Part shown: in pieces, positions 3,312 to 25,044 of the stretch
How positions within the stretch are numbered: the first letter of the stretch is position 1
How the letters are laid out: each line of letters begins with the position of its first letter
Assembly: GCA_048938445.1 (NCBI GenBank)
Contig: JBHLME010000061.1
Coordinates: 1-25,044, forward strand
Source: Promethearchaeota archaeon
Lineage (GTDB): Archaea > Asgardarchaeota > Lokiarchaeia > Sigyniarchaeales > SOKP01
Direction of reading: 5' to 3'
Length of the DNA: 25,044 nucleotides
Position numbers and translations under genes: made by a program
Notes under the pieces: generated by a model
Told to the model about the DNA's origin: nothing
Seen by the model: the letters and a program-made list of their open reading frames with translations, nothing else
Databases searched by the model: none

Positions 3312-3827
3312 TTAGATCTTTTTATTCTTTTTGAGCTTAATCTCCATTTCATTCCATACTTTTAATAGATTTTTATAACCAGTAAATCTTACTAAATGTT
3401 CTTCTATATTAATTCTAATTTTTTCATAACCATTTAATTTATGTAATTTTTCCTGATTTTCTTCCATTTCTCGCTTTATTTCCAAAAGTTTATTTTCCCA
3501 TTTCAAGTTAGATTTAATAATATTGATGCCTCTATTAAAGATTTCTGACTCGATCGATTCCATTGAATAAGTAATTTCACCCGTAGAAGATTTATTTAAT
3601 ATTTTAATCAAATTCATTCGAACAAAATCATTCACTTCTTGGGAAATCTTTCCTGCTGAGATTCCAGTCAATCTTTGTAGATTTTTTTGAGTTAATTCCT
3701 TTCTTGTTATAAAATAAAATAGAATAGTTGAAGTGATTTCACTTCTACCCTCTCCTAAGATTGAATTTAGGAAGTAGGTTATTATTTCATTTTCAATCTT
3801 TTTTATTTCTGGATCAAATCTTACCAC
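3312..3827 (-). CDS. GbsR/MarR-like winged-HTH regulator, 'B-type' subunit (cassette 1)
   Basis: HTH LTQKNLQRLTGISAGKISQEVN with wing, and a C-terminal coiled helix with LNGY. GTG start with an AGGTG SD-like site, 26 bp after the partner gene. Confidence 0.85.
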   Translation of the reverse strand: MVRFDPEIKKIENEIITYFLNSILGEGRSEITSTILFYFITRKELTQKNLQRLTGISAGKISQEVNDFVRMNLIKILNKSSTGEITYSMESIESEIFNRGINIIKSNLKWENKLLEIKREMEENQEKLHKLNGYEKIRINIEEHLVRFTGYKNLLKVWNEMEIKLKKNKKI

Positions 3828-3853: not shown

Positions 3854-4357
3854 TTAGCGAGCAAAAATTACACTCATTTCAGACCATATGCTTGTAATTA
3901 AATCTAATGATTGGAGCATCTCATTTAATCTAGTTGAAAGGAGTTCAAATCCTGATTTATTCTCGTATTTTTTTAACTCCTTAAGTTTAGATAAAATATA
4001 TTCTTTAATTTTTGGAAGTTCCGTATAAGACAAGTTACCTACACGAGCATAGACTTGAGTGTCAATTTGATAATAATATTCATTTGTTTTTTCAATTCTT
4101 TTCTTTTCAATAACATTTGATTTAATTAGAAATCTTAATTTTTTTGATATCGTTCCTATTGAATATCCAGTTAAATCTCTAAATTGTTTTTGCGTTAGTT
4201 TTTTATGGATGCCCAAATAAGATAGTATTTTTTGAAGTTTAAGATCTGCAGATTTAGCTCTTCCAGATTCCATTGAGAAATCTACTAAAACTTGCTCAAA
4301 CTCCTTCATTTTACCTTCAAAAACATGACTATCAATATTATTTCGTGCAACAGGCAT
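3854..4357 (-). CDS. GbsR/MarR-like winged-HTH regulator, 'A-type' subunit (cassette 1)
   Basis: HTH IHKKLTQKQFRDLTGYSIGTISKKL, wing IEKKRIEKTNEYYY. Confidence 0.85.
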   Translation of the reverse strand: MPVARNNIDSHVFEGKMKEFEQVLVDFSMESGRAKSADLKLQKILSYLGIHKKLTQKQFRDLTGYSIGTISKKLRFLIKSNVIEKKRIEKTNEYYYQIDTQVYARVGNLSYTELPKIKEYILSKLKELKKYENKSGFELLSTRLNEMLQSLDLITSIWSEMSVIFAR

Positions 4358-4401
4358 TATCCTAATTTATAATATGACCTTTTAAGTATTTAAGGTTTTT
4401 T

Positions 4402-4500
4402 ATGTTTTTCATTTTTCATGAAGAATAGAAAACATTTAAATATACAATTTTATATAATTTTTATGGGAATTTTTATTTTTCATGAAGAATAGAAATTCCC
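4402..4500. promoter_or_regulatory. Divergent promoter of cassette 1: two near-perfect palindromes flanking a BRE/TATA box
   Basis: Exact 21-bp direct repeat ATTTTTCATGAAGAATAGAAA at 4411-4431 and 4475-4495. Each lies within a palindrome centred on TTCATGAA (4402-4435, 34 bp; 4465-4500, 36 bp). AAAACATTTAAATAT at 4429-4443. Confidence 0.85.
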
Positions 4501-4534
4501 CTATTTTTAAATAAAAAATAAAGAAGAAAACAAA

Positions 4535-5497
4535 ATGAATGCGATTGAAGTAAAAAATTTAGTTAAGTATTATTCTCGGGGAAAAATAAAAGCTGTTGAT
4601 GGGATATCATTTAATGTACCCCAAGGATCGAGGTTTGGATTTTTAGGTCCCAATGGTGCAGGAAAAACTACAACTATTCGATGTTTACTTGGATTATTAC
4701 AACGAACCTCAGGAGATATAAAGATTTTTGGTAAAAGTGTTGATCCAACTAAAGATATTAGATTTCGAAATCTTGTAGGATATTTACCTGGAGAATTAGG
4801 AATTTATAAACAGATGACTGCTACTCAACTAATTAAATTCTTTTCAAAGCTTTATGACATTGAAATTGATTGGGATTTCATTAAAGATGTTTCAGAGCGC
4901 CTTCAAATCGATATGAATCGAAAGATGGGGGTATTAAGTAAGGGTAACAAACAAAAAGTAGGTGTTCTTACTGCCTTAATGGGGAAGTTTGACTTGCTCG
5001 TCATGGATGAACCTACTTCCGGTTTAGATCCACTAATGCAATCTGAATTTTATAAAATTGTCTCGGAAAGGCAGAGAGACTCTAATTGCACGGTATTTGT
5101 TTCAAGTCATGTCCTTCCAGAAGTAGAAAAATTCTGCGACACGGTTGCTATTATTAAAAATGGTAAGATTGCGGAAATTTCAGAAGTTCAAAACCTTAAA
5201 GCTAAGAGTTTAAAGCATATTGAATTAGAATTCGCATCAAATGAAAGCAAAAAAAGCTTTATTTCTTACTTATCATCTGAATTTCCTGAAGGAATAATAA
5301 AACATCAATTTGATACCCAAATAAGTTTTTTACTCCCTCCTGATGACACAAGAAAAATAATAGGTGAGCTTGGTAATCATGAATGGGCGGGATATCCTAT
5401 TAAGGACATTACAATTAAACATTCGACTTTGGAAAATATTTTTTTACAGTATTATAAAAATACTAAATCTAATTCGAAAGGAGGTGTGGTTTCATGA
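4535..5497 (+). CDS. ABC-2 type transporter ATP-binding subunit
   Basis: Walker A GPNGAGKTT, signature LSKGNKQK, Walker B LLVMDEPTSGLD, H-loop SSH. Confidence 0.95.
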   Translation: MNAIEVKNLVKYYSRGKIKAVDGISFNVPQGSRFGFLGPNGAGKTTTIRCLLGLLQRTSGDIKIFGKSVDPTKDIRFRNLVGYLPGELGIYKQMTATQLIKFFSKLYDIEIDWDFIKDVSERLQIDMNRKMGVLSKGNKQKVGVLTALMGKFDLLVMDEPTSGLDPLMQSEFYKIVSERQRDSNCTVFVSSHVLPEVEKFCDTVAIIKNGKIAEISEVQNLKAKSLKHIELEFASNESKKSFISYLSSEFPEGIIKHQFDTQISFLLPPDDTRKIIGELGNHEWAGYPIKDITIKHSTLENIFLQYYKNTKSNSKGGVVS

Positions 5498-6372
5498 GTT
5501 CTAAAAATACTCAACTTAGAACAATCAAAAATGTAAAGAATCCCATAATATTTTTAAACAAACCCATTAGAATTGCTTGGAAAGAATTAGTCCTTGGAAA
5601 AAAGGGGATTTTGTTTTATACCATATTAATGTTATTATTTACATTCTGGTTCACGACCATATTTAATCCAGGTTTATTTTCCAAAATGGCTGAATATTTT
5701 GAGAATTATCCCGAGGTTGTTCTCGAGATGGTTGGTGGACAATTAGCATTAGGAGAATTTGGTGGATTCATTAACACGTATATCTTTTCATTTGCATGGA
5801 TGTATTTTGGAATATATCTCATAATGAGAGCCTCACAAGATATTCCAAAAGAAATCGATAACAAGACAATTGATTTAGTCCTTTCAAAACCTATAAATCG
5901 ATGGCAGTTTGTTATAGGAAAATACTTCCAACACTTAACTACGACACTTCTCATGACAGGTGCGGTTGCTCTTGGATTATTTCTTGGTATTTTCACGGTC
6001 CCTGCTATAAATCCCGCAGAAGTTTATTATAATGAAGTGATAATTGCCATTCTGTGGTTATTTTTATTCTTAGTAGCACTAGTAAGTACTGGTTTTTTCT
6101 TTTCTACCTTCATGAGTACAAGGTTGTCTTTAGCTTTTAGTTTTGGAATGATGATCTTTTTTTATGCAATTGGTTCTTTTTCAAGTTTAATGCCTGAAGC
6201 GGTGCAGGGCATTAAATATTTTAGCATATTTTATTATTTCTTGCCCTCTGACTTATTAATTGATCATACTTTAGATTTTATTTGGTTGCATGCCCTCGTG
6301 CTCGTCTTTTATTCCGTGGTTATCACGATTATCGCTGGAATCATCTTTAATAAACGAGACATCCCCGTATAA
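5494..6372 (+). CDS. ABC-2 type transporter permease
   Basis: About six hydrophobic segments; motif KEIDNKTIDLVLSKPINRWQFVIGK; ATGA overlap with the ATPase; GGAGGTG SD. Confidence 0.92.
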   Translation: MSSKNTQLRTIKNVKNPIIFLNKPIRIAWKELVLGKKGILFYTILMLLFTFWFTTIFNPGLFSKMAEYFENYPEVVLEMVGGQLALGEFGGFINTYIFSFAWMYFGIYLIMRASQDIPKEIDNKTIDLVLSKPINRWQFVIGKYFQHLTTTLLMTGAVALGLFLGIFTVPAINPAEVYYNEVIIAILWLFLFLVALVSTGFFFSTFMSTRLSLAFSFGMMIFFYAIGSFSSLMPEAVQGIKYFSIFYYFLPSDLLIDHTLDFIWLHALVLVFYSVVITIIAGIIFNKRDIPV

Positions 6373-6447
6373 TCATAAATTTATTTTTTTATTTTTATTA
6401 TAGCTATAAGGCAGAATTTAAAATCATTGCTCATTAGAGTTTTAGAA

Positions 6448-6972
6448 TTATTTATTTGCATTTTTAATTGACTTAGTGTATTTGTCAATTATATCGCTCA
6501 TTTTCTTATATTCCTTGATTAAATCCACGTAGTATGAAGTATTCTGATATATTCGCTTAAATCCATTCAAATGTTCGAATTCTTTCTTTCCTTGTTCTAA
6601 TTCTTTTTTTATTTCTGATAATTCTTGTTCCCATTTTACTAATTTGTTCACTGTAAATTTTGTTAAATTTAGAAATATTATGCCCGCGGAGTTCGCTGAA
6701 TAGGTTAATTTTCCCTTTTTAGATTTATCAACTATTTCTATGAGTCCCATTTCAAGAAGGTTATTGACCTCTTCAGAAATCTTACCAGCAGACATTCCAG
6801 TAATATCTTGAATGGTTTTTTGAGTTAGATGTTTTCGAGTAATGAATAACATTAAAATTCTTATGAATAATGGATCCCTTGGTGCAAAAAATGGGGCAGA
6901 AAGAAAGTGGTTAATTATATCATCTTCAATTACATACACTTCAGGATCAAATTCTATTTCGGACACGATCAT
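6448..6972 (-). CDS. GbsR/MarR-like winged-HTH regulator, 'B-type' subunit (cassette 2)
   Basis: FDPE...FITRKHLTQKTIQDITGMSAGKISEEVN...LNGF. Clear paralog of 3312..3827; 4-bp ATGA overlap with its partner. Confidence 0.85.
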   Translation of the reverse strand: MIVSEIEFDPEVYVIEDDIINHFLSAPFFAPRDPLFIRILMLFITRKHLTQKTIQDITGMSAGKISEEVNNLLEMGLIEIVDKSKKGKLTYSANSAGIIFLNLTKFTVNKLVKWEQELSEIKKELEQGKKEFEHLNGFKRIYQNTSYYVDLIKEYKKMSDIIDKYTKSIKNANK

Positions 6973-7484
6973 TCCTCCCGTGGTATTGTTTCTATAAAAT
7001 TTGGGAAAAGTTCCCTATAAACATCAAATATATCACACAATTCATCAATTCTTTGAGCTAAATGAGCCGCCCCTTTCTTCTTTTCTTTTTTCAATTTTAA
7101 TAATTCCTCTTTTTTTTTCTGCAAGAAAGATTCTGATTGAAGAAGACTCTTCAAAGCATTATCCATTCCTCTTGTTGTGAGGTCCTCTATATCTCCACGA
7201 TACCGATACGTATACTTATGAGTTCCATGGATTCTTTCCTTTTCATAATAACCTGTTCCAAGCATAACTGATAAAAATGTTGAGATTGTCCCAAGTGAAA
7301 ATCCGGTTAATTCTTGAAGTTGTTTTTGAGTCAATTTTTTATGAATTATCAAGTAAGCGGACATCTTCAAGTATTTTGGATTCACTCGCTTTTGTTCTCC
7401 TATACTCGTAAAGAATTCAATTAGTTTATTTTCATATGGTCTTAATTTTTTATCAAAAAGATATTCTACTACATCATTCGTCAT
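6969..7484 (-). CDS. GbsR/MarR-like winged-HTH regulator, 'A-type' subunit (cassette 2)
   Basis: YLIIHKKLTQKQLQELTGFSLGTIS. Clear paralog of 3854..4357. Confidence 0.85.
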   Translation of the reverse strand: MTNDVVEYLFDKKLRPYENKLIEFFTSIGEQKRVNPKYLKMSAYLIIHKKLTQKQLQELTGFSLGTISTFLSVMLGTGYYEKERIHGTHKYTYRYRGDIEDLTTRGMDNALKSLLQSESFLQKKKEELLKLKKEKKKGAAHLAQRIDELCDIFDVYRELFPNFIETIPREE

Positions 7485-7510
7485 TTCTTATACTATAATT
7501 GATTTTTCAA

Positions 7511-7679
7511 TTATTTAAATCTTTCAAATCTTTCAAATTTTATGAAAGGTAATTTAAAGTTATTATTTTAGCGCTAGACTGGTTTCATAAATTTTGAAAA
7601 ATAAAAACATTTAAATATCTAGTTTTCTATATTATTTATAGGTTTCATAAGATTTGAAATTTAAGAATCATGAAACCTA
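7511..7679. promoter_or_regulatory. Divergent promoter of cassette 2 with three TTTCA-N7-TGAAA boxes
   Basis: Boxes at 7531-7547, 7583-7599 and 7643-7659. BRE/TATA AAAACATTTAAATAT at 7604-7618 (+). TTTAAATA at 7512-7519 (-). Inverted repeat TAGGTTTCAT/ATGAAACCTA at 7639-7679. Confidence 0.85.
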
Positions 7680-7713
7680 AATAGAATTACTATAAAAGAA
7701 GTGATAGAAAAAA

Positions 7714-8535
7714 ATGGCCTTACAAGTAAAATTAACTGAATGGTTTGATGAATTAGAAGAATGGATTTATAATATTGACGACAAATTTGATGGATTTTTA
7801 GATAAGACATATAAAAATATACACGGAATGCATTTTGGTACTGTAGGTTTATTGATATATGCTTTATCAACATTAATCGCTGTATTGTTATATCTTTCGG
7901 TAGATTCTAGTTATTCAATTTTTACACACTGGATAAGTCATCTTGGAGATGGACCAAATGGAGCAAATATTGTTTTTAACATTGGATGGATTATATCAAG
8001 CGGAATATTACTCTTCTTTCTCGTTCATGAAATTCGCGAATTAAGAAAAAAGGGTGCAATAGAATTGATATTAGATACCATGTTATTAGCTGCAGTAGCT
8101 TTTTCAGCTGGACTTTTATTAGTTGGACTTTTCCCTTTACATTTAGGGATTCCACACACTGTTGCTGCGACTTTTTATTTTATTGGTGGTTTTACCTATT
8201 TTCTACTTTATGGGATTATACTACTCACGATACCTGTCGGAGGTAAAATTCGGTCTTTTTTTGCTTTTATCACGGTCGCATGTCACTTGCTATATTTCTT
8301 ATCTCCCATTATAACAATATATACTGTTCAAATTGGAATCACGATGAACTTTTTAGAGTGGATGGTGTTGATCTCAGAAGTTTCCGTGTTGCTCGTAATG
8401 TTATCCTATTATTACATAAACAAGGTTCAAGAGCGAAAAATAAATGAATTTAAAGTTAAAGCTAAAAGCTGGATTAAAAATGACTGGACATACAAAAACG
8501 AATTAGTAGAATATATTGAATTATTTTATAAATAA
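7714..8535 (+). CDS. DUF998 / Frag1-DRAM-Sfk1-like multi-pass membrane protein
   Basis: YSIFTHWISHLG...FN motif, VGLFP, H..A..F, about six TM helices. Confidence 0.75.
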   Translation: MALQVKLTEWFDELEEWIYNIDDKFDGFLDKTYKNIHGMHFGTVGLLIYALSTLIAVLLYLSVDSSYSIFTHWISHLGDGPNGANIVFNIGWIISSGILLFFLVHEIRELRKKGAIELILDTMLLAAVAFSAGLLLVGLFPLHLGIPHTVAATFYFIGGFTYFLLYGIILLTIPVGGKIRSFFAFITVACHLLYFLSPIITIYTVQIGITMNFLEWMVLISEVSVLLVMLSYYYINKVQERKINEFKVKAKSWIKNDWTYKNELVEYIELFYK

Positions 8536-8647
8536 TTAAATTTAGTATTATTTTTTTATCATGAAAATAACTGGTGAGTTTTAAAAAAAATTGAAATTCG
8601 TATTTATCCTTTTGAATATTAAAATAATAATTATATACTTGAAATGA

Positions 8648-9343
8648 ATGAAAATGAGTGAAAAAGAAACATCTAGAACAAAATTGATTATTGGTACAAC
8701 CATTGCGATAATCTTGGTTGAGATTTTTCTAGCTTTATGCTTATTCATACCAGCAGGAACAATTTTCTGGCTTGAACCATAGATATATCTCATTATTTTT
8801 GGAACATTTTTTATGACCGTAGTCATATATTTCAGTAAACATTCCCCTCAAATGCTTAAAAAGAGAACGAACCCTAAATTTACTGAAAAATGGGATAAAA
8901 TTGTCATAGCATTCATATCAATTGGATTTGTTCCAATTTTTTTTACCCCTGGAATAGAGTATAGATTTGGGTTAATAATCATTCTTCCCTTAGTTGAACT
9001 CATTGGATTTATTGTAATGTCTCTTGGTTTCATCATTATATTTTTGACGATGAAAGAAAATGCCTTTTTGTCAAAAGCTGTTGAGATTCAAGAAGGACAT
9101 GAAGTTATCACGACAGGTCCATATGGAATTGTTCGTCATCCAATGTACATGGGGTTCATCCTATACATGTTCGGATATTGTATAGCACTTGGTTCTCTAT
9201 TCTCCCTTATATTTGCGGTGATTGGCATCGTAGGATTAATAGCTAGAACCGTGCTTGAAGATAAAATGCTTCATGAAGAGTTGAGAGGATATACAGAAAA
9301 TGCTCAAAAAACTCGAAAGAAATTAATACCAGGGATATGGTAA
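8648..9343 (+). pseudogene. Isoprenylcysteine carboxyl methyltransferase (ICMT/PEMT) family gene interrupted by an in-frame TAG at 8780-8782
   Basis: C-terminal motifs HEVITTGPYGIVRHPMYMG and RTVLEDKMLHEELRGY. The same frame upstream of the annotated 8813 start reads MKMSEKETSRTKLII...LFIPAGTIFWLEP*IYLIIF; this family typically has ...AGT..W..AWIY. Confidence 0.8.
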
Positions 9344-9475
9344 TTAAGATAAATTTATAAATATAAACAAATCTAAATCCCATTACTTAAAATCATCCAA
9401 TTAAAGAATTTATTATCCAAGATTTTATTAATAAAAATTTATTTATAGTTAATATCAAGTATATTGGGGGTTTAA

Positions 9476-10900
9476 ATGGAACAAAAAAATTTGTCATATA
9501 GTTTCTATGTAATCGCACCTTTCAATTCGAGAATGGTCTTTAACAACTTAAATTTGATAGGTAAATATGAAGATATTAGAAAGTTATTGTATCAAAAGAT
9601 GAATAAAAAGTACCCTGAACAGGTACTCATAGAAAAATTAGGAAAAGTTACTTCTGACTCAGAAACCATTCAACGCTGGTTAGGAGAACTGGAAAATGTC
9701 TCGGATGAAGAGGAAGATATTAGGCTATTTAAAGGAACGGGAGGGAGTGGTGTTACTCAAAAAGATAAGAGCATCATCACGATAATGATTGATCAAGAAT
9801 TTGAATTATCCCTTGATGTATTTGGACATGATATTTTTACTACTCCACCTAAAATTGTTTTGGAAACCATGAGCTTCCATGAATATGGTGTTGGAACTAT
9901 TTATTGTAAGCTTAATATTAATCTTAAACAAGATTTATTACAGATTTCGGAGATTCCACCGAAAAAATTATTAACAAATTTACTTGATATATCAGTAACT
10001 CATCCTCCATTATTAAAAGCTACTCAAACGATTGGTGAAGATGTATATCAAAATTATTTAGAAATTATTGATGAACTTGAATTGGATGAACCAATTATTT
10101 CTTATGAAAATTTATTTACTGATCAAAAATCTTCTATTCCTTTATGGGGTCATATAGTGATTGTAAGAGAGGATATTGATGATACTCAGGAGGAATTAGT
10201 TAACACTTTGCTTGAAAAGTTAATTGATATTAGTCATCCTGATGGATCTATTGATTTTGCTGAAGGAACCAAGGGTTATGTTCATATTGGATGGGGAAAT
10301 AGTTTGTGGACGGGATTAAACGATATAGAATTAAATTATGCAAAAGAGATACTTCGATATTGCGAAGTTGAATGGCGTACACTTCAAGTCTTTAATGAGA
10401 TATTATATAAACGATTAAATCAGTTTGCTTCATATGATAAATTACATAAAAGACTGGTAAAGAAAACGATGCTTTGGATAGATGCATTGCGAATGGAAAT
10501 GGAACTCTATTCCCTTAATAAATCTAATTATTTGCAAAACCTCGCTCCATTTGCACATTTTATTTATAATGAGGCCTTGGAAAGTTGGCGAATTTCTCAA
10601 ATGGAAGATTTTTTTAAAGAAAAATTGGAAGTTTTTGAATATCTGCATCAACAAGGACGAGATACGCTAAATGAAATTAGCGATTCACGAATAAATAACA
10701 TTTTATTCGTTTTTACTTGTTTATCTTTAGTTAGCACTTTTATCGACGGACTCGTGTTTGTTTCAGCAGATCATCTTTCAGAATTTTTTATATTTCGCTT
10801 GTTCTTGTTAGTATTCCCTCCAACGGCATTTATCATACTGATATTAATGTTTTTTGCCAGATTTGGTGCATCAAAAAAGAAAAGACGAAGGAAAAAATAA
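9476..10900 (+). CDS. Hypothetical protein with CorA-like architecture (large soluble domain, long helical stalk, two C-terminal TM helices, polybasic tail)
   Basis: C-terminal ...SDSRINNILFVFTCLSLVSTFIDGLVFV...FRLFLLVFPPTAFIILILMFFARF...KKKRRRKK. No GMN motif. Confidence 0.6.
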   Translation: MEQKNLSYSFYVIAPFNSRMVFNNLNLIGKYEDIRKLLYQKMNKKYPEQVLIEKLGKVTSDSETIQRWLGELENVSDEEEDIRLFKGTGGSGVTQKDKSIITIMIDQEFELSLDVFGHDIFTTPPKIVLETMSFHEYGVGTIYCKLNINLKQDLLQISEIPPKKLLTNLLDISVTHPPLLKATQTIGEDVYQNYLEIIDELELDEPIISYENLFTDQKSSIPLWGHIVIVREDIDDTQEELVNTLLEKLIDISHPDGSIDFAEGTKGYVHIGWGNSLWTGLNDIELNYAKEILRYCEVEWRTLQVFNEILYKRLNQFASYDKLHKRLVKKTMLWIDALRMEMELYSLNKSNYLQNLAPFAHFIYNEALESWRISQMEDFFKEKLEVFEYLHQQGRDTLNEISDSRINNILFVFTCLSLVSTFIDGLVFVSADHLSEFFIFRLFLLVFPPTAFIILILMFFARFGASKKKRRRKK

Positions 10901-10927
10901 AAAAACTATCACTTATTTCTTATTTCA

Positions 10928-10937
10928 TTTTTTTTTT
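10928..10937 (+). terminator. Oligo-T terminator candidate
   Basis: T10 run between convergent genes, 27 bp after the 10900 stop. Confidence 0.4.
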
Positions 10938-10960
10938 ATAATTAGTATCAGTAAGAATAT

Positions 10961-12079
10961 TTATTTTTGCTCAACCTGCTTGAAATGTTTCATTGCTTCT
11001 TCAAACAAGATAATTGCTTTTTCAACGACCTGAAACGATTTTAAAAATTCAGATACGCGGTTTTTAATCAATTCATAACCATTTAAATTAAATAATTTAT
11101 CTTTCTTGGTATTTAATTCTTTTAAGATCTTGCTCAATTTTTTTTTTTGGTTCTCGATATATTGAAATCTTTTGTAAAATTTGAACATGTTAAAATATCC
11201 AATACTAGGTAAAACATACCTTCTCTGACGGATACCTTTAATTTTTTCAACTTGAATATATCCTTCAATTTGTAAGTAGTTTAAACCCTCAGAAATTAAT
11301 CCCGAAGATAAACCTGTCAAATTTTGTAATTCTAATTGAGTAAGTTTTTCACGAATCATCAAATAGGATACGATTGGTTGAAATTTCATCTCTTCGATAA
11401 TAAAAAGCGGGGAGTGAGATATAAAATTAAACATTTCTTGTACTACATGCTCAACACTATCATACATCATTTGAGTATCATTCTCAATATTTTGCTTGAG
11501 TTTATTTAATTCCTCAGCTATGGGTGCGAATTCTTTTCCTGTTTTCCCCGCCATAAATTTATCCAATAAAGACATGTGATAGATGAAATAATCTCTTAAT
11601 TCTAATGCTTTATTTAACAATAACTTTCGAATCTTAACGTCCTTATCATGTGGGATCATGTTTTTTAAACTTGATATCATTTTATTTATTTTCTTAATAG
11701 AATCAATCATCATGGTTATACCGATTTCTTGACTAATTGAAAACATGTCCGCAATATTGTCTACTACCACGTGGTATACAAATTCATTTTTTTTACTTGC
11801 TGTTTTTTCTTTCAAGATGATTTTAGGTTCATATGATAAATATTGATTTAAAAAAATTGATATCGCACCTCTTGAAATCTTTTTTTCGCGGAAAAATCCT
11901 GATAAATCTTGAATCTGCTTTTGAGTAAGACTTGGATGGAGCAAAAAATATCCTAATATATGTGATTCGATTTCAGTTTTTCTTTTACTTTTTCCAGATT
12001 CTATGATGAAATCAATTAATTCTTTTTCATATTTTCTAATTTCTTCTGGATAAATATGTTCTTGACTATTATCAGTCAT
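10961..12079 (-). CDS. Tandem double winged-HTH regulator: fusion of A-type (N-half) and B-type (C-half) GbsR/MarR-like domains (cassette 3)
   Basis: N-half: YEKELIDFIIESGKSKR...YFLLHPSLTQKQIQDLSG...SRGAIS. C-half: SPLF...YLMIREKLTQLELQNLTGLSSGLISEGLN...LNGY. Confidence 0.85.
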   Translation of the reverse strand: MTDNSQEHIYPEEIRKYEKELIDFIIESGKSKRKTEIESHILGYFLLHPSLTQKQIQDLSGFFREKKISRGAISIFLNQYLSYEPKIILKEKTASKKNEFVYHVVVDNIADMFSISQEIGITMMIDSIKKINKMISSLKNMIPHDKDVKIRKLLLNKALELRDYFIYHMSLLDKFMAGKTGKEFAPIAEELNKLKQNIENDTQMMYDSVEHVVQEMFNFISHSPLFIIEEMKFQPIVSYLMIREKLTQLELQNLTGLSSGLISEGLNYLQIEGYIQVEKIKGIRQRRYVLPSIGYFNMFKFYKRFQYIENQKKKLSKILKELNTKKDKLFNLNGYELIKNRVSEFLKSFQVVEKAIILFEEAMKHFKQVEQK

Positions 12080-12105
12080 TTTTTAATAATATATTAGTAG
12101 TTATT

Positions 12106-12221
12106 CTATTTAAATTTTCAGTAATCGTGAATTTTCATCATTTTTGAAAACATTTATATATGTAATTTTATATTATTTTTTTGGGACTTTCATTTTTTGT
12201 GAAAGTTCACATAGAGTGAAT
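12106..12221. promoter_or_regulatory. Divergent promoter of cassette 3 with two tandem pairs of TTCA-N7-TGAA boxes
   Basis: Boxes at 12116-12132, 12133-12149, 12188-12204 and 12205-12221. BRE/TATA AAAACATTTATATAT at 12147-12161 (+). TTTAAATA at 12107-12114 (-). Confidence 0.85.
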
Positions 12222-12244: not shown

Positions 12245-13660
12245 ATGATTATAAAACAATCAAAATATGAAACCCAGGATTTCAAGCGGAAAGCATTGCC
12301 TCAAGAGCGTAGACATCTAAAAATTCCCCTGTCTAATATTGTAATAATTGCGAAAATTAAAGGCCAGATTACCGAAGAAATGTTGAGATCTGCCATTCTT
12401 AAAGTAGAAATAAAACATCCAATAATAAAGGTAAAAAGCGTACTAGAACCAGATGGACATCTTTATTTTTCCTCTAAAAATGTACCAGATATACCTATTC
12501 AAATTATTCCAAAAATCTCTGAGGAACAGTGGAAGGAAGTTATCAAAAAGGAACATCAAATCCCCTTTGATTATGAAAAGGGTCCTTTATTGAGAATAAT
12601 ACTTCTTCAAGCTGTTCAGCATTCGGATCTTGTCATTTTTTGTCAACATTCAATCTCAGATGGAATGTCATTAGCATATTTAGCAAGGGATATTGTATCT
12701 TTCATGGCTAAACCAAATCAAGAAATTAAAAGATTAGTTCCAAGAGCATATCCATCTCCAGATTACGTTCCTTCTGATGTATCTGCGGGGATAGCCATGA
12801 AAATTTTTGGAAAGAAGATCAATAAAATGTGGAAATCTCAGAAAGTAGAGTTTGACAAAAAAGATTATATGGAACTTCACAAAGCATTCTGGAATATCCA
12901 CACGTATAAAATACTTGTCAGTCGATTGAATGAAACGCAAACTCTTGATTTAATTAAAAAATGCAGAAAAGAGGACATAACAGTCAACACTGCGATTACA
13001 ACTGCTTTTTTGGCAGCTCAAATAGAGATGCATGACTCACTTCCATCATATTTAGAAAAATTAGCGGTTGCTGTAGATGAACGTGATAGATTAATCAATC
13101 CCGTAGGAGAAGTTGTAGGCTTCAATGCTTCTGGTTTAATGGTCAAACATAAGTATGATACTAATAAAAATTTTTGGGAAAATGCACGCTCTCTTCACAA
13201 AATCATTCAAAAACAATTAAAATCAAGAAAAGATTTACAAGGAATCCTTCAAACAGCAATGATGGACGAATTAATGCTAGAAGCTCGACCATTTGCGGGA
13301 TTTGGATATATGGTTCCTCAAGAATCTCCTAGCTTTGAAAAGATAAACAAGTTCTTGTCTAATTCTAAAAATGTTGTTATAAAAAACATTAAAAAAATCG
13401 CTAAAAAATATGAAAAGATTGTATTTGGCAGCATAATAACAAATTTAGGTCGCACCGATTTTCCAAAAGAATATGCTAATTTGATTTTAGATGAACTATT
13501 ATTTGTAGCAGCAGCATCACCTCAATGCGAGCTGGTCTTGGGTATAATCACTCATGCTGGAAAACTTGATATAGTGATAAATTATTTTGAAGAAATAGTT
13601 AATACAGAGTTAATTGAACAAATAGCGAAAAAGGCGATAGAAAAGTTAAAAATTTTATAA
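12245..13660 (+). CDS. Stand-alone condensation-domain / alcohol acetyltransferase (PapA5-like) CoA-dependent acyltransferase
   Basis: HPII...PFDYEKGPLLR, active-site variant QHSISDG (HHxxxDG), C-terminal ITNLG. Confidence 0.85.
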   Translation: MIIKQSKYETQDFKRKALPQERRHLKIPLSNIVIIAKIKGQITEEMLRSAILKVEIKHPIIKVKSVLEPDGHLYFSSKNVPDIPIQIIPKISEEQWKEVIKKEHQIPFDYEKGPLLRIILLQAVQHSDLVIFCQHSISDGMSLAYLARDIVSFMAKPNQEIKRLVPRAYPSPDYVPSDVSAGIAMKIFGKKINKMWKSQKVEFDKKDYMELHKAFWNIHTYKILVSRLNETQTLDLIKKCRKEDITVNTAITTAFLAAQIEMHDSLPSYLEKLAVAVDERDRLINPVGEVVGFNASGLMVKHKYDTNKNFWENARSLHKIIQKQLKSRKDLQGILQTAMMDELMLEARPFAGFGYMVPQESPSFEKINKFLSNSKNVVIKNIKKIAKKYEKIVFGSIITNLGRTDFPKEYANLILDELLFVAAASPQCELVLGIITHAGKLDIVINYFEEIVNTELIEQIAKKAIEKLKIL

Positions 13661-16304: not shown

Positions 16305-16841
16305 TTAATGAAGTGATTTTTCAATTTCTTGAGCAATAAAATTGCGAACTTCATTTTCGATGGATTTAAATGACCGAAGTTGTTTTTTAATACTTGGAGG
16401 CAGGATGAAGTAATTGATGAATGGAATTAAAAGAATAATCGATTCCTTCCCAAATTTAGTCAAGCCATATTCTACTCTGATAGGGCTCTCAGTTAAGACC
16501 TCACGTGAAACAATACCTCTTTGTTCAAGAAATTTCAATCTATCAGTAAGAGTACGTGAATTAATCCCAGGTAAAGCACTTTTTAGAGTATTAAAATTGC
16601 ATGTCCTAAACATTAAAAGTGAATAAAGAATTTCAATCGTCCATTTTCCCTGTAATAATTTGAATATTTCCTTATATAGATTGGCTTTTATTCTCACTTT
16701 TTCCACATTATTTACGTGATACTTACGATCTCGTTCTAATCCTTTTAATATTGTTTCTTGTACCGAAGGAATTAACTTGATTAGTTCTCGATAGTTATTA
16801 AAGGGAGGTTTTATCTCAATATCTTTCAAATTCATCACCAT
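16305..16841 (-). CDS. HxlR/DUF24-family winged-HTH transcriptional regulator
   Basis: LLQGKWTIEILYSL...FNTLKSALPGINSRTLTDRLKFLE...PIRVEYGLTKFG. Confidence 0.92.
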   Translation of the reverse strand: MVMNLKDIEIKPPFNNYRELIKLIPSVQETILKGLERDRKYHVNNVEKVRIKANLYKEIFKLLQGKWTIEILYSLLMFRTCNFNTLKSALPGINSRTLTDRLKFLEQRGIVSREVLTESPIRVEYGLTKFGKESIILLIPFINYFILPPSIKKQLRSFKSIENEVRNFIAQEIEKSLH

Positions 16842-17008: not shown

Positions 17009-19039
17009 ATGATGAATGGAGGATTTTTTGGAAAAGTTTTATGGATAGATTTATTCTCAGAAATTTTTGAAGAAGAAATCTTAAATGAAGAAATATATAA
17101 ACAATATATTGGAGGTTATGGTCTAGGTTCATATCTGCTTTATAAACACATGAAGCCACGTGTGGATCCTCTTGGAATGGATTCAATATTAGGATTTTTT
17201 CCTGGACTCATGACTGGAACTCCTGCCCCATTTTCAGGGAGATACATGGTTGTTGGGAAATCTCCGTTAACAAAAACATGGGCTAATCCTAATTCTGGCG
17301 GGAGTTTTGGTCCTGAGATAAAAAAATGTGGTTATGATGGGATTTTAATCAAAGGGATTGCATCTACACCTAAGTATATCAGTATAATTGAAGGAAAAAA
17401 AGAAATATTGGACGCTTCAGATATCTGGAAATTAGATATAGTTAGAGCAGAAGAAAGATTGAAAGAAAAGCATGGAAAGTTCATTAAAACAGCAGGAATA
17501 GGACAAGCAGGAGTAAATCTCTCTTTAATTGCCGGAGTTGCAAATGATAAAGGACGTATTGCCGCAAGACAAGGATTAGGTGCGGTCATGGGATCGAAAA
17601 ATCTTAAAATGTTAGTCTTGAAAGGTAATGAAAAAATGCCCTATCATAATAAAGATCATTTTCTAGATGTAATAAAAGAACATAATAGAGAACATGCCTT
17701 TAAAGAACCAAGAACGATTACTAAGCAAGTATTACAATTAGTTCCTAGATTGGGAAAATTCATGAGAAGAACCGGGATGGGATTTTCAGTTCCTCCTGGA
17801 ATAAAAAAGCAAGTTTGGCGAAATCTTGGAACTTCATCAGGAAACACTTTATGCGCTGAAATAGGAGATTCGCCGGTAAAGAATTGGAGCGGAATTGGCA
17901 TGGTTGACTTCCCTTATTCCAAGTCAAAGAATATTTCAGCTTTAGAACTTCAAAAATACAAAATAAGAGACTATGGTTGTTTTAGTTGTCCCGTGCAATG
18001 TGGAGCAATTTTAAAGGTTCCTGAACTGGATTTGGAAGAAACACATTTACCAGAGTATGAGACGTGTTGTGCATTTGGAACTCTTCTCCTGAATGATGAC
18101 CTCAAGTCTATTATTGAAATTAATGATATTTGTAATAGAGCAGCTATAGATACGATATCGCTGGGTGGAACTGTTGCGTTCGCAATTGAGTGTTATGAAA
18201 ATGGTATCCTTACTAAAGTAGATACAGATGGATTGGATTTAACTTGGGGAAATTCAGGAGCAATTGTTGCATTAACGAAAAAAATTATCAACAGGGAAGG
18301 GATTGGAGAAATTTTGGCTGATGGTTCAAAAATAGCTTCAGAAAAAATAGGTAATGGAAGTGACCAATATGTAATGGCTTCATTAGGATGTGAATTTGGT
18401 ATGCATGATCCCAAAAAATATGACTCTTTGGCTTTTTCCTATGCTTACGATCCGACTCCCGGGAATCATAATGCTGCAAGCATTGATTTGATGGAAACTT
18501 TGGGACCAATGGAGAAATTTATTAAAGGAACTTCGATGCCAAAAGGATGGAAAAAAAATCTAAACTCAAAATATAAAGCTCAAGTTATCAATACGAGCTC
18601 TACTCAAGTTATAAATAGTCTCGGTCTCTGCATTCTTGCGCCTTTATTCGGAGAATATCCATTTTTTGAATTATTTAACAGCTTAACAGGTTGGGATTAT
18701 GAATTTAATAATTTTTTTGAAATTGGTCTAAGAATTCAAAATCTTCGTCAAGCATTTACACTTCGAGAAGGGGTAAAACTTGCAGAAAATGAATTACCAG
18801 GAAGAGTGATCGGAAATCCCCCTAACGATATAGGACCTAATAAAAACATAACTGTAGAATATAAAGATTTTTATCAAGGTTATTGCAAAGAAATGGGTTG
18901 GAATGAAAAAGGATTTCCTTTACCTAATACTTTACTTGATCTTGATTTAGAATTTGTAATTGACGATTTATATAGAGATGATAAAGACAAGAAAAATATA
19001 TACAAGGAAATAGAGAGTATATCCGGAGTGTCCTCATAA
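17009..19039 (+). CDS. aor: Tungsten/molybdopterin aldehyde:ferredoxin oxidoreductase (AOR/WOR family)
   Basis: KSPLT, GAVMGSKNLK, [4Fe-4S] ligands CFSCPVQC plus SLGLC, EYET, DTIS; AGGAGTGA SD upstream. Confidence 0.93.
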   Translation: MMNGGFFGKVLWIDLFSEIFEEEILNEEIYKQYIGGYGLGSYLLYKHMKPRVDPLGMDSILGFFPGLMTGTPAPFSGRYMVVGKSPLTKTWANPNSGGSFGPEIKKCGYDGILIKGIASTPKYISIIEGKKEILDASDIWKLDIVRAEERLKEKHGKFIKTAGIGQAGVNLSLIAGVANDKGRIAARQGLGAVMGSKNLKMLVLKGNEKMPYHNKDHFLDVIKEHNREHAFKEPRTITKQVLQLVPRLGKFMRRTGMGFSVPPGIKKQVWRNLGTSSGNTLCAEIGDSPVKNWSGIGMVDFPYSKSKNISALELQKYKIRDYGCFSCPVQCGAILKVPELDLEETHLPEYETCCAFGTLLLNDDLKSIIEINDICNRAAIDTISLGGTVAFAIECYENGILTKVDTDGLDLTWGNSGAIVALTKKIINREGIGEILADGSKIASEKIGNGSDQYVMASLGCEFGMHDPKKYDSLAFSYAYDPTPGNHNAASIDLMETLGPMEKFIKGTSMPKGWKKNLNSKYKAQVINTSSTQVINSLGLCILAPLFGEYPFFELFNSLTGWDYEFNNFFEIGLRIQNLRQAFTLREGVKLAENELPGRVIGNPPNDIGPNKNITVEYKDFYQGYCKEMGWNEKGFPLPNTLLDLDLEFVIDDLYRDDKDKKNIYKEIESISGVSS

Positions 19040-21679: not shown

Positions 21680-23464
21680 TTAACGAGTTACTTTTCTATT
21701 CTTTATCATTCTCCTTAATTGACTTTGAATCTTTAAGCGATCTAAATTTTGGTGCATTTTTGGTTTTACAATTCGAGCTTCTTCGGGAAATTTTGAATTA
21801 AGTTCGTCAATCACAGTTATTAACTCTTCATCATTTAAATATTGTAAATATCCTCGAGCAATAAGATATTCAACCACATTTGGTACCCCACTTGTAAGCC
21901 TGAGGGCGATTTCTTCTTTAAAAACCTTTTTTGCTAAAGGATCTCCTAGTATAGTCAACCTTCTTAAGAGAGGAAATGCTAGATTTCTATGTAATAATCT
22001 TGTATCATAATCATTTTCAGCCCATGCTTGTAAATTTGAACAATGTCCCCAAAATTCCATTTCAGGAGTCAATATTCTACGATTTTGAACTCCTAATGAC
22101 TTATCTAATTTAATCTCTGCCTCATCAATTGAATCAATAGAATCGTTTAAGATTTTGTCTTCTACGGGAATGTTAAAAAGTAAATACATGCACTGTAGGA
22201 ACCTGATATTTCTTAGATATATATAAGTTTTATTATATTCAAACCTAAGTGTTATATAGTCATTAATTTTAAATTGTTTTAATGATTTCGTTTTAATCTT
22301 ATGCACTTTAAACGTGTTGCTAATCCCTAGGATTTGAATTATTGGATTTTCATTCAAGAATATAACATCTAATGAAACTAATTTGTTTATCGATTCTGGT
22401 AGAGTTTTAATGTTATTCCATCCTAAATATAGAAAATTGAGTGAAGTTAATTCCGTGATTTCATCTGGTAACAAAGAGATATCATTGTCTCCTAAATCAA
22501 TTCTTGTTAAATTTTCCAAATTTTTAATTGATTTGGGAATTACCTTAATATTATTCGTTCCAAGATATAATTCTCTTAGTTTGGATAGTTTGCATATCAT
22601 CTCTGGAATTTTATTAAGTTTATTTCTAAATAAATTTAAATTTATAAGGGATTTTAATTTTTTAAAACTTTTCGGAAGTGAATTTAAATCGTTATCGGCA
22701 AGTTTCAAATTTTTTAAATTAAATAATTTGCCAAATGTATCTGGAAGTTTAGTTAAGTTGTTTTTATTTAATAATAATTCTTCAAGAGAGTAGAGATCCC
22801 CAAATGATTCACATAACTTAAATATGTTATTTTTACTCAAATCTAAATATTTAAGGAATTTTAATTTTCCAAATGAATCTGGGAGAGATTGAATATTATT
22901 ATTTTCAAGAGATAAAAAGCTCAATAATTTAAGATTCCCGATGTTCTCAGGTAGTGATTTCAATTGATTATTTGATAGTATTAATTTTCTAAGATGCTTA
23001 AATGTTAAAATATATTCTGGAAAAACTTCCAAATTGCAATAACTTAAATCTAACTCTTTAATTTTACGCTTGTCAAGATAGTTATATAATATCAAGAATT
23101 CCTTTTCATGAAAGTACTTGCTAATCATTTTTTTCTTTAAATATATTATATTTTCGCTTGAAACCATTGTCAATTTTTTTCTAATTTCATTTCTCATAAA
23201 TATTGTTAAATTAGGATTTCCCGATTCAATCAATTTTTCCAATAGTGGAAAGGCCAATTCTACTTTAAGGATGTCAAAATTATAACCAGTTTTAATCCAC
23301 TCATGAATTAATTTACACTGATAATGGAACTCTTGCTCTCTCTCTTTTATGAATCTGGTTTTTGATAATGTTTTTAGAGTAACGATTTTAATATTATTTA
23401 CATGAGCACTAATCTTATTGCCTTTCAATCTTATCTTAATTAATTGGTTAATTTCATGCTCCAT
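21680..23464 (-). CDS. Leucine-rich-repeat protein with Lokiarchaeia-type 'EFWGHCSNLQAW' domain
   Basis: Ten complete 23-aa LRRs plus a partial one (aa ~135-375), then FKINDYITLR...EFWGHCSNLQAWAENDYDTRLLHRNLAFPLL...KVFKEEI. Confidence 0.9.
   Translation of the reverse strand: MEHEINQLIKIRLKGNKISAHVNNIKIVTLKTLSKTRFIKEREQEFHYQCKLIHEWIKTGYNFDILKVELAFPLLEKLIESGNPNLTIFMRNEIRKKLTMVSSENIIYLKKKMISKYFHEKEFLILYNYLDKRKIKELDLSYCNLEVFPEYILTFKHLRKLILSNNQLKSLPENIGNLKLLSFLSLENNNIQSLPDSFGKLKFLKYLDLSKNNIFKLCESFGDLYSLEELLLNKNNLTKLPDTFGKLFNLKNLKLADNDLNSLPKSFKKLKSLINLNLFRNKLNKIPEMICKLSKLRELYLGTNNIKVIPKSIKNLENLTRIDLGDNDISLLPDEITELTSLNFLYLGWNNIKTLPESINKLVSLDVIFLNENPIIQILGISNTFKVHKIKTKSLKQFKINDYITLRFEYNKTYIYLRNIRFLQCMYLLFNIPVEDKILNDSIDSIDEAEIKLDKSLGVQNRRILTPEMEFWGHCSNLQAWAENDYDTRLLHRNLAFPLLRRLTILGDPLAKKVFKEEIALRLTSGVPNVVEYLIARGYLQYLNDEELITVIDELNSKFPEEARIVKPKMHQNLDRLKIQSQLRRMIKNRKVTR
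22340..23062 (-). repeat. Coding LRR array, 69-bp period, about 10.5 units
   Basis: Consensus LxxLxLxxNxLxxLPxxIxxLxx counted in the translation. Confidence 0.9.
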
Positions 23465-24597: not shown

Positions 24598-24737
24598 CGG
24601 TGATACCTCCATTTAAATGATTTAAAGTATGCGGTCATTAAAAGGTTGGCGATGCCCAGCCTTCTTTCAGAAGATCTGAGATTATTGACTGACATAGATC
24701 GGCCTTAAGTGTTAAGAACTTACTTCAGAATAGATTG

Positions 24738-24767
24738 AACTTAGCGAAAAAAAGAGCTATATGTCAA
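24738..24767 (-). promoter_or_regulatory. Bacterial sigma70-like promoter upstream of the nitroreductase
   Basis: TTGACA (24767-24762), 18-nt spacer, TAAGTT (24743-24738) on the minus strand. Confidence 0.5.
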
Positions 24768-25044
24768 GCCAAAAAGACATCGAGATATTAAGAAGGTTTT
24801 AGGCCAGTATTGCAGATAACGATTACCAAATCTTGCATCATGATCCAAATCTACCACCCAACGTCTTCATGAAATTATCCTGATTTTCCCAAAATCCTCG
24901 AATGGTAATTCTAGGTTCTCTCCAGGGGGAATTTGGGGTCAAACGTTCAACATTCAATTAAGCGTAAGGAGGGCCCATCCATGAGTTGCGGCCTGCTAAG
25001 GCCGTCTAGTCTTTCAGATGGAAAACCTTCCGACGTAGCCCTTA

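Follow-up and report, generated by a model that had tools for sequence, protein, structure and literature searches.

Among described transcriptional regulators, those of the GbsR type, for which MJ223 (1ku9) serves as a template (PMC6207618), are the closest to the system reported here. According to the accessible sections of the papers cited, GbsR binds downstream of the transcription start, at an A/T-rich inverted repeat whose half-sites are 4 bp apart, and acts as a roadblock, and OpcR blocks its promoter directly (PMC7396694). The same sections note that genes of the GbsR family often lie beside ABC transporters (PMC7396694, PMC6207618), and the available part of a survey of the family describes the proteins as homodimers and lists archaeal members in Euryarchaeota only (PMC6207618). 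The present analysis concerns a 25,044-nt stretch of a Promethearchaeota archaeon genome (contig JBHLME010000061.1, positions 1 to 25,044; hereafter the window), which contains three cassettes of winged-helix regulators, termed A and B, and the 17-bp palindrome TTTCA-N7-TGAAA found, exact or with mismatches, in the divergent spacer of each cassette. In each spacer, the regulator genes lie on the minus strand on one side and the target on the plus strand on the other.

The regulators resemble the GbsR/OpuAR/MJ223 branch (COG1510) in their best, though marginal, sequence match (MJ223), in a fold match and in the combination of a winged helix with long C-terminal dimerisation helices. As far as the accessible sections of the GbsR papers go, an A/T-rich inverted-repeat operator downstream of the start and ABC-transporter neighbours are further common traits, whereas an A and B pair or an A-B fusion replaces the homodimer, half-sites are separated by 7 bp instead of 4 bp, and the hosts are Asgard archaea and Bathyarchaeia instead of the Euryarchaeota reported there. 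Unlike the Opu importers of the osmoprotectant subgroup of GbsR, which is marked by an aromatic cage for a quaternary-amine inducer, the targets here comprise exporters and acyltransferases. The cassettes also recall classical MarR-type efflux regulators (MarR, MepR and the Rv0678-like 4nb5), with a regulator divergent from an efflux system, several palindromic sites in the shared intergenic region, likely autoregulation and a fold match to 4nb5. Classical MarR systems, however, use bacterial sigma-70 promoters, whereas the sites described here are set relative to the archaeal transcription factor B (TFB) recognition element (BRE) and TATA box; moreover, the unit is a hetero- or pseudo-dimer and Pfam MarR_2 scores fall below the cut-off. 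The fused form resembles the two-domain SarA homologue SarS (1p4x), in which one chain carries two MarR/SarA-like winged-helix halves that mimic a dimer (fold-search probability 0.84), but the TM-score reaches only 0.17/0.24, the sequences are unrelated, and split pairs and fusions coexist in the present family. Finally, the archaeal repressors MDR1, LrpA, Phr and TrmB have operators that overlap the BRE/TATA or the start region and exclude TFB and the TATA-binding protein (TBP) or RNA polymerase; operator placement is similar here, although the protein families differ.

TTTCA-N7-TGAAA is read here as the operator of the adjacent A/B regulators, which would act as ligand-released, autoregulating repressors; a probability of roughly 0.68 is given to this reading, with repression as the sign of regulation inferred from the geometry of the sites. 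In the window, five exact matches were found for 0.28 expected, a number reached by none of 100 dinucleotide shuffles, and all five fell in spacers 2 and 3. Seven of the 12 window matches with at most one mismatch lay inside the three spacers, which together make up 571 nt (2.3% of the window); the remaining five (3104, 5490, 8580, 11347, 24665) are compatible with chance. The first-pass annotation had placed boxes in all three divergent spacers, and each was found at its coordinates when the sequence was re-read, with 64, 60 and 55 bp between the BRE-proximal and downstream boxes of cassettes 1, 2 and 3, within the 55-64 bp it had given. The three spacers align over a common core consisting of a box, GAAAACATTTAAATAT (BRE/TATA), about 25 nt, GG(G) and a second box. 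The six regulator domains of the window are paralogues with only 23-38% identity; over such a distance, neutral spacer DNA should have diverged.

The features of the three cassettes are listed below, with their basis in brackets; operators and boxes are given without strand.

Cassette 1 (putative nested operators, ABC transporter):
3312..3827, minus strand: regulator B1, winged-helix, B-type, 171 aa (family profile, E = 7e-67; Pfam MarR_2 18.3 bits where 27 are required)
3854..4357, minus strand: regulator A1, winged-helix, A-type, 167 aa (family profile, E = 7e-62; member of the nested-operator clade)
4387..4394, minus strand: octamer CTTAAATA (minus-strand reading), likely the TATA box for A1-B1, some 37 nt upstream of the ATG at 4357 (sequence)
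4407..4430: putative upstream operator, 24-bp nested palindrome TTTCA-N2-TTTCA|TGAAG-N2-TAGAA (sequence and clade alignment)
4407-4423: box TTTCA-N7-TGAAG of the first-pass annotation, 1 mismatch, inside the upstream operator (sequence)
4435..4442, plus strand: TATA box TTTAAATA in the promoter of the ABC-transporter genes, directly behind a BRE-like AAAACA (conserved across all three spacers)
4471..4494: putative downstream operator, in which the nested palindrome recurs, starting 36 nt past the TATA start and just beyond a conserved GGG at 4465-4467 (sequence and clade alignment)
4471-4487: box TTTTA-N7-TGAAG of the first-pass annotation, 2 mismatches, inside the downstream operator (sequence)
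4535..6372, plus strand: target, ABC ATPase (4535-5497) and ABC-2 permease (5494-6372) (Pfam ABC_tran 1.2e-24, ABC2_membrane_2 6.3e-17)

Cassette 2 (single 17-mers, membrane protein):
6448..6972, minus strand: regulator B2, 174 aa, overlapping A2 by 4 nt (family profile)
6969..7484, minus strand: regulator A2, 171 aa (family profile; A2+B2 complex model)
7512..7519, minus strand: octamer TTTAAATA (minus-strand reading), likely the TATA box for A2-B2, with the expected start about 5 nt before the ATG at 7484 (sequence)
7531..7547: box 0, exact, beside the regulator promoter (sequence)
7583..7599: box 1, exact, 10 nt ahead of the target TATA box (sequence)
7610..7617, plus strand: TATA box of the target promoter (spacer alignment)
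7643..7659: box 2, exact, 33 nt after the TATA start, directly behind GG at 7641-7642 (sequence)
7714..8535, plus strand: target, membrane protein with a marginal DUF998 match (Pfam DUF998, E = 2.5e-7, 31 bits for a cut-off of 30)

Cassette 3 (fused regulator, abutting 17-mers):
10961..12079, minus strand: fused A3-B3 regulator, 372 aa, two winged-helix halves (two profile matches, 1e-64 and 4e-66; AlphaFold2 model)
12107..12114, minus strand: octamer TTTAAATA (minus-strand reading), likely the TATA box for the fused regulator, 1 nt away from the putative operator (sequence)
12116..12149: putative upstream operator, situated between the divergent TATA boxes and composed of two abutting 17-mers, 12116-12132 (TTTCA-N7-TGAAT, 1 mismatch) and 12133-12149 (exact) (sequence)
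12153..12160, plus strand: TATA box TTTATATA of the target promoter, 3 nt past the operator (spacer alignment)
12188..12221: putative downstream operator, beginning 35 nt past the TATA start and behind a GGG at 12183-12185, composed of two abutting 17-mers, 12188-12204 (exact) and 12205-12221 (GTTCA-N7-TGAAT, 2 mismatches) (sequence)
12245..13660, plus strand: target, condensation-domain / PapA5-like acyltransferase (Pfam Condensation 1.4e-10, PapA_C 8.9e-8)

The sites of cassette 1 would be better read as a nested 24-bp palindrome than as single 17-mers. They belong to a 45-nt direct repeat whose two copies lie 64 nt apart, and the core TTCATGAA was invariant in both operators of all eight aligned spacers of the cassette 1 clade, with variable flanks. 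The best NCBIfam match of the ABC ATPase of this cassette was DrrA-like, under its cut-off. The abutting layout of cassette 3 was common to its orthologous loci L025 and L028 (L-numbers denote the loci described below), where the condensation-domain target family also adjoins the regulators.

Motif enrichment was then measured across related loci. One scan of species-representative genomes with the A-type alignment yielded 35 loci, in which A and B genes were marked by profile among the called genes; leaving out the window and the duplicated region L009/L028, 40 cassettes were retained and sites were counted within 250 nt ahead of each A gene, a total of 9,829 nt. These upstream regions contained 33 exact sites and 79 sites with at most one mismatch. 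At least one site with no more than one mismatch was present in 36 of 40 cassettes, an exact site in 25, and two or more sites in 25. By comparison, 135 control windows placed ahead of other genes of these loci and totalling 33,750 nt contained one exact site and 12 sites with at most one mismatch, a site of the latter kind occurring in 12 of the 135 windows, and 200 dinucleotide shuffles of the cassette upstream regions gave a mean of 0.14 exact sites (maximum 2). In gene-based classes that include the three spacers of the window, exact sites amounted to 3.45 per kb in cassette spacers, 0.04 per kb in other intergenic DNA and 0.01 per kb in coding DNA; in about 300 kb of loci, other intergenic DNA contained one exact site in 27 kb. 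The motif was ~85-fold denser upstream of A/B genes than in other intergenic DNA of these loci, two compartments in which, by the first-pass annotation, equal frequencies were to count against a role for the motif.

The palindrome also emerged when it was not given as input. When every inverted-repeat pair of 4- or 5-mers separated by 0-14 nt was scanned, TTCA-N7-TGAA was the top dyad (35/40 cassettes vs 6/135 controls; Fisher p = 3e-25), followed by TTTCA-N7-TGAAA (25/40 vs 1/135). The gap profile was sharp, with 68 occurrences at N7 and 0-1 at N5, N6, N8 and N9; secondary peaks at N0 (24) and N14 (10) arose from nested sites. The loci hosts were nearly all Promethearchaeota, other Asgard archaea (Hodarchaeota, Odinarchaeota, Hermodarchaeota, Thorarchaeota) and Bathyarchaeia, and the motif was kept across the Asgard lineages and Bathyarchaeia although the regulators are only ~30% identical. 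Motif-bearing genomes spanned 26-45% GC, with the Bathyarchaeia loci at 43-45%, in addition to one contig of 66.6% GC. On this contig, the spacer beside the A homologue was AT-rich and contained two boxes 53 nt apart around TTTAAATG (L034:3860-3940), the neighbour gene encoding a methyltransferase.

In one fused-regulator subclade (L005, L007, L008, L009, L011, L012), the spacer to the ABC ATPase, which precedes position ~3980, was 385-784 nt long and contained one exact box only, ~150 nt away from where the regulator starts. These long spacers may hold unannotated small genes or long leaders.

The arrangement of sites followed regulator phylogeny. On a maximum-likelihood tree of the 40 A domains, with rows labelled by operator layout, the cassette 1 clade had nested sites only (9/9 rows), the cassette 2 clade single 17-mers only (16 rows) and the cassette 3 clade abutting 17-mers only (3 rows); the four rows of the Bathyarchaeia clade had nested sites. 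Five label changes were needed, compared with a mean of 18.6 after shuffling, and none of 200 shuffles reached five; since kin share labels, this fit shows clustering and not co-evolution. Differences in the N7 had been proposed as a possible source of cassette specificity. The N7 was indeed partly conserved between orthologues, as in box 0 of cassette 2, whose N7 (AATTTTA) recurs identically in the orthologous locus L001, but the layout of sites, which tracks the clade, was the clearer discriminator. The different layouts of paralogous cassettes in one genome probably limit cross-talk. As for targets, the divergent neighbour genes were ABC ATPases in 26 of 37 cases, while the Thorarchaeota fused-regulator clade faces SBBP beta-propeller genes; the usual target is most often a DrrA-like ABC-2 exporter.

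The boxes held regular positions relative to promoter elements. Across loci, 21 boxes ended 2-6 nt, mostly 3-4 nt, ahead of an exact TTTAWATA, and boxes lying past a TATA box started 33-46 nt after it (mode 35). Box-to-box spacing was 51-64 nt, and offsets of 7 and 17 nt stemmed from nested and abutting sites. In all three window cassettes, GG(G) occurred 30-32 nt after the TATA start; because the archaeal TATA box is centred near -26/-27, transcription would be expected to start at this GG(G). The downstream box, starting ~35 nt after the TATA start, thereby lies just past the expected start; the first-pass annotation had put it at the start. Its claim that the other box abuts or overlaps the BRE applied to cassette 3 (3 nt to the TATA box) and to the nested site of cassette 1 (4 nt), but was loose for cassette 2 (10 nt). 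On the regulator side, TATA-like octamers occurred beside or near the upstream box (12107-12114, 7512-7519 and 4387-4394), and these positions would give near-leaderless regulator mRNAs. The BRE-side box, the post-start box and the regulator-side TATA flanking the upstream box all fit a placement for blocking initiation combined with autoregulation, as had been suggested.

Conservation extended beyond the arms and was mirror-symmetric. Outside the core used for selection, A was found at position -2 in 63 of 86 sites and T at position +20 in 54 of 86; within the N7, positions 6 and 7 mirrored positions 12 and 11, with T/A then A/G behind TTTCA and the mirrored order ahead of TGAAA. The mirrored flanks indicate a two-fold symmetric site of ~23 bp, with the extended form A-N2-TTTCA-N7-TGAAA-N2-T. 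Such symmetry would be expected of a site for a two-fold symmetric protein, not of a directional promoter element.

Regarding the proteins, the six regulator domains of the window share the helix-turn-helix (HTH) signature LTQ...LTG.S.G.IS, and no Pfam or NCBIfam model scored above its cut-off for any of these regulators. They reached 18-22 bits on Pfam MarR_2 (cut-off 27), with many homologues having a precomputed PF12802 assignment, and the NCBIfam GbsR-type model CudC gave only E = 0.0046 (model cut-off 218 bits). The closest solved structure by sequence was MJ223 (1ku9), with a marginal profile score against the PDB (E = 0.0018, 21.7 bits). In the source databases, homologues are named hypothetical, MarR family, winged helix-turn-helix or 'GbsR (MarR family)', the latter from automatic annotation (JGI). 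In a profile search of 1.84 billion representatives, 451 family members were detected at E <= 0.001 and 83 at E <= 1e-30, and 86 of the best 150 family representatives were of fused size. Wherever the contig continues, each A homologue was followed by a B homologue or formed an A-B fusion, and fused forms appeared in at least three clades of the A-domain tree.

The AlphaFold2 model of the fused regulator (pLDDT 92.2, pTM 0.88) comprised, in each half, a helix, an HTH, a two-strand wing and two long helices, i.e. the winged helix and dimerisation-type helices of the MarR superfamily. In the fold search, the halves matched 4nb5, which we take to be Rv0678 (TM 0.61-0.66 on target), and 1ku9 (TM 0.53 on target). 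The regulators are most likely distant MarR/GbsR-MJ223-like winged-helix proteins. For A2+B2, the complex model scored 0.75 against 0.00 for the best control, runs agreed in at least 81% of contacts, and partner pLDDT was at least 84; of 157 solved complexes, 116 attained the mark for this score, as did 2 of 215 mismatched pairs. The predicted interface involved residues 7-34 and 99-168, corresponding to the N-terminal helix and the C-terminal helices.

The lowest E-values of the fold search, made with the entire fused model, belonged to the multi-winged-helix chains RPC62 (RNA polymerase III) and TFIIE, with TM of 0.2-0.26 and rmsd of 18-25 A; these matches were judged to reflect a generic winged-helix and coiled-coil likeness, not kinship. 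The Methanosarcina Msr regulators, considered as possible relatives, were dropped, as no search match pointed to them.

In the proposed mechanism, an A-B heterodimer or fused single-chain pseudo-dimer would occupy each 17-mer, the same-type recognition helix of each half reading one TTTCA half-site. One operator would sit between back-to-back promoters, its right half-site reaching or abutting the target BRE and its left side facing the TATA box of the regulator, so that occupancy of this upstream site would hinder TFB/TBP at both promoters, autoregulation included. The second operator, ~35 nt after the target TATA start and hence at roughly +2/+5 to +20 of the expected start, would, when occupied, block RNA polymerase recruitment or escape. 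A small-molecule ligand would free the regulator and switch the target on. A bolder version, put forward tentatively and held to be more doubtful than probable, is that of an obligate hetero- or pseudo-dimeric MarR-like family restricted to Asgard archaea and Bathyarchaeia. All its paralogues would read TTTCA, specificity would be encoded by layout (one 17-mer, registers nested 7 bp apart, or abutting 17-mers), and one bound unit would replace both BREs between back-to-back TATA boxes, a single molecule switching the target and its own gene.

Several points weigh against the operator-repressor reading. Over the whole window, matches with at most one mismatch numbered 12 for 6.63 expected, which 5 of 100 shuffles reached and which alone is not significant. 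Many loci are close kin, and their counts overstate the number of independent events. Four of the 40 cassettes lacked the motif, namely three Thorarchaeota loci and one weak bacterial match; the latter is probably no family member, and the Thorarchaeota fused-regulator loci (L030:744-824, L032:3433-3479, L033:632-713) share another conserved stretch, TTTTCTAATTTTTGAAAAT followed by TATAAAT, which could represent an operator that has diverged. The right half-site overlaps BRE-like sequence, and a generic (C)AAAACA-TTTAAATA BRE/TATA was also present in a few unrelated promoters of the loci, so part of the near-TATA conservation is ordinary promoter sequence. The complex model cannot separate A-B from A-A or B-B, and its pass may reflect likeness to the many MarR-type dimers of solved structure; genetics would make the stronger case for an A-B unit, through the strict A-then-B order, the overlapping genes and the repeated fusion. 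Lastly, the position just upstream of the BRE is used by some archaeal activators such as Ptr2 and TFB-RF1. The same protein-DNA pair might be an activator or dual-mode regulator that, bound upstream of the BRE, recruits TFB/TBP to one or both promoters, with the downstream site tuning or counteracting this effect. Such a role would suit the 21 upstream boxes located 2-6 nt before a TATA box and the cassette 2 box that, 10 nt away, leaves the BRE uncovered, but we regard it as unlikely: in most cassettes the second box lies just past the expected start (mode 35 nt), a classic repressing position, and the targets are mostly efflux-type ABC transporters, which related MarR/GbsR systems repress according to the accessible sections of the literature (PMC7396694).

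The remaining explanations dispense with the A/B proteins as readers of the palindrome. Were the half-sites simply BRE elements of two back-to-back promoters, the palindrome would be a by-product of promoter symmetry and no dedicated operator would exist. In cassette 3 and many loci, TGAAA does adjoin the TATA boxes that flank the upstream box on either side, an orphan TGAAA abuts the regulator-side TATA box of cassette 2, and the BRE-like AAAACA is generic. Yet the half-sites keep a rigid N7 gap at TATA distances that range from 2 to 10 nt, an exact TATA box adjoins only 21 (target side) and 4 (regulator side) of ~86 boxes, downstream boxes come after the TATA box, the flanks are mirror-symmetric, and TGAAA preceded the BRE in none of 20 TATA-bearing control promoters, all of which makes this explanation improbable. 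It is very improbable that another factor, e.g. a global regulator encoded elsewhere, binds the motif and that the A/B proteins bind another sequence: a half-site common to three paralogous cassettes would suit a global factor, but the motif is nearly confined to the A/B neighbourhood (one exact site in 27 kb of other intergenic DNA), accompanies A/B genes across phyla, and changes layout with the regulator clade. Least credible of all is that the similarity was left over neutrally when the cassettes duplicated, or that the palindrome works as a hairpin in the RNA of the 5' leader. The homology of the three spacers would agree with the former and the probable transcription of the downstream box with the latter, but the boxes stayed exact while the regulators diverged to 23-38% identity and were kept while the sequence between them varied; upstream boxes precede the TATA box and would not be part of the target mRNA, and the stem would have only five A/U-rich pairs. 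No Rfam family or tRNA was detected in the window.

Searches of the open-access literature (for the motif in archaea, COG1510 in archaea, heterodimeric archaeal MarR proteins and Asgard MarR operators) brought up, among the papers listed, none that describes the regulator family or its site. A MarR/GbsR-like operator-repressor module is known as such; rated as new are the two-paralogue or fused unit, the N7 palindrome set to the archaeal BRE/TATA, the clade-specific layouts, and the Asgard and Bathyarchaeia hosts. Asgard archaea are the closest known relatives of eukaryotes, and to our knowledge almost nothing has been established experimentally on their gene-specific regulation. The operator-repressor reading offers a defined protein pair or fusion and a 17-bp site whose spacing is strict and whose place with respect to BRE, TATA box and start is conserved, in three paralogous versions within one genome that make cross-talk testable. 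Two different subunits, repeatedly fused, on a symmetric site would be an unusual solution among MarR proteins, and the system gives a handle on which exporters and lipid- or acyl-modifying genes are under control in these archaea. Should activation be true instead, it would still be informative on how BRE-adjacent factors act on the archaeal, eukaryote-like initiation machinery.

Other features were observed in and around the cassettes. In the spacer of cassette 2, a direct repeat of two CTTTCAAAT units (7521-7538) runs into box 0, and an extra half-site, ATGAAACC (7670-7677), situated 21 nt past box 2, has an inverted counterpart, GGTTTCAT, at 7641-7648. A 474-aa protein with no Pfam or NCBIfam match is encoded at 9476-10900 (plus strand), between the targets of cassette 2 and the fused regulator of cassette 3; paralogy with the 471-aa condensation-domain protein at 12245-13660 was considered and rejected (E = 0.25).

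Elsewhere in the window, an HxlR-type regulator (16305-16841, minus strand) is divergent from an aldehyde:ferredoxin oxidoreductase gene (17009-19039, plus strand), a pair that has no TTTCA-N7-TGAAA box. The window has 25-35% GC, except for a non-coding region at 24620-25044 with ~45-49% GC, in which no Rfam family, tRNA or long open reading frame stood out. The protein encoded at 21680-23464 (minus strand; 594 aa) consists almost wholly of leucine-rich repeats (LRR_14, 3.6e-46; LRR_8, 3e-36), and a CheR-type chemotaxis methyltransferase (PF01739, 6.9e-49) is encoded at 310-1158 on the minus strand.

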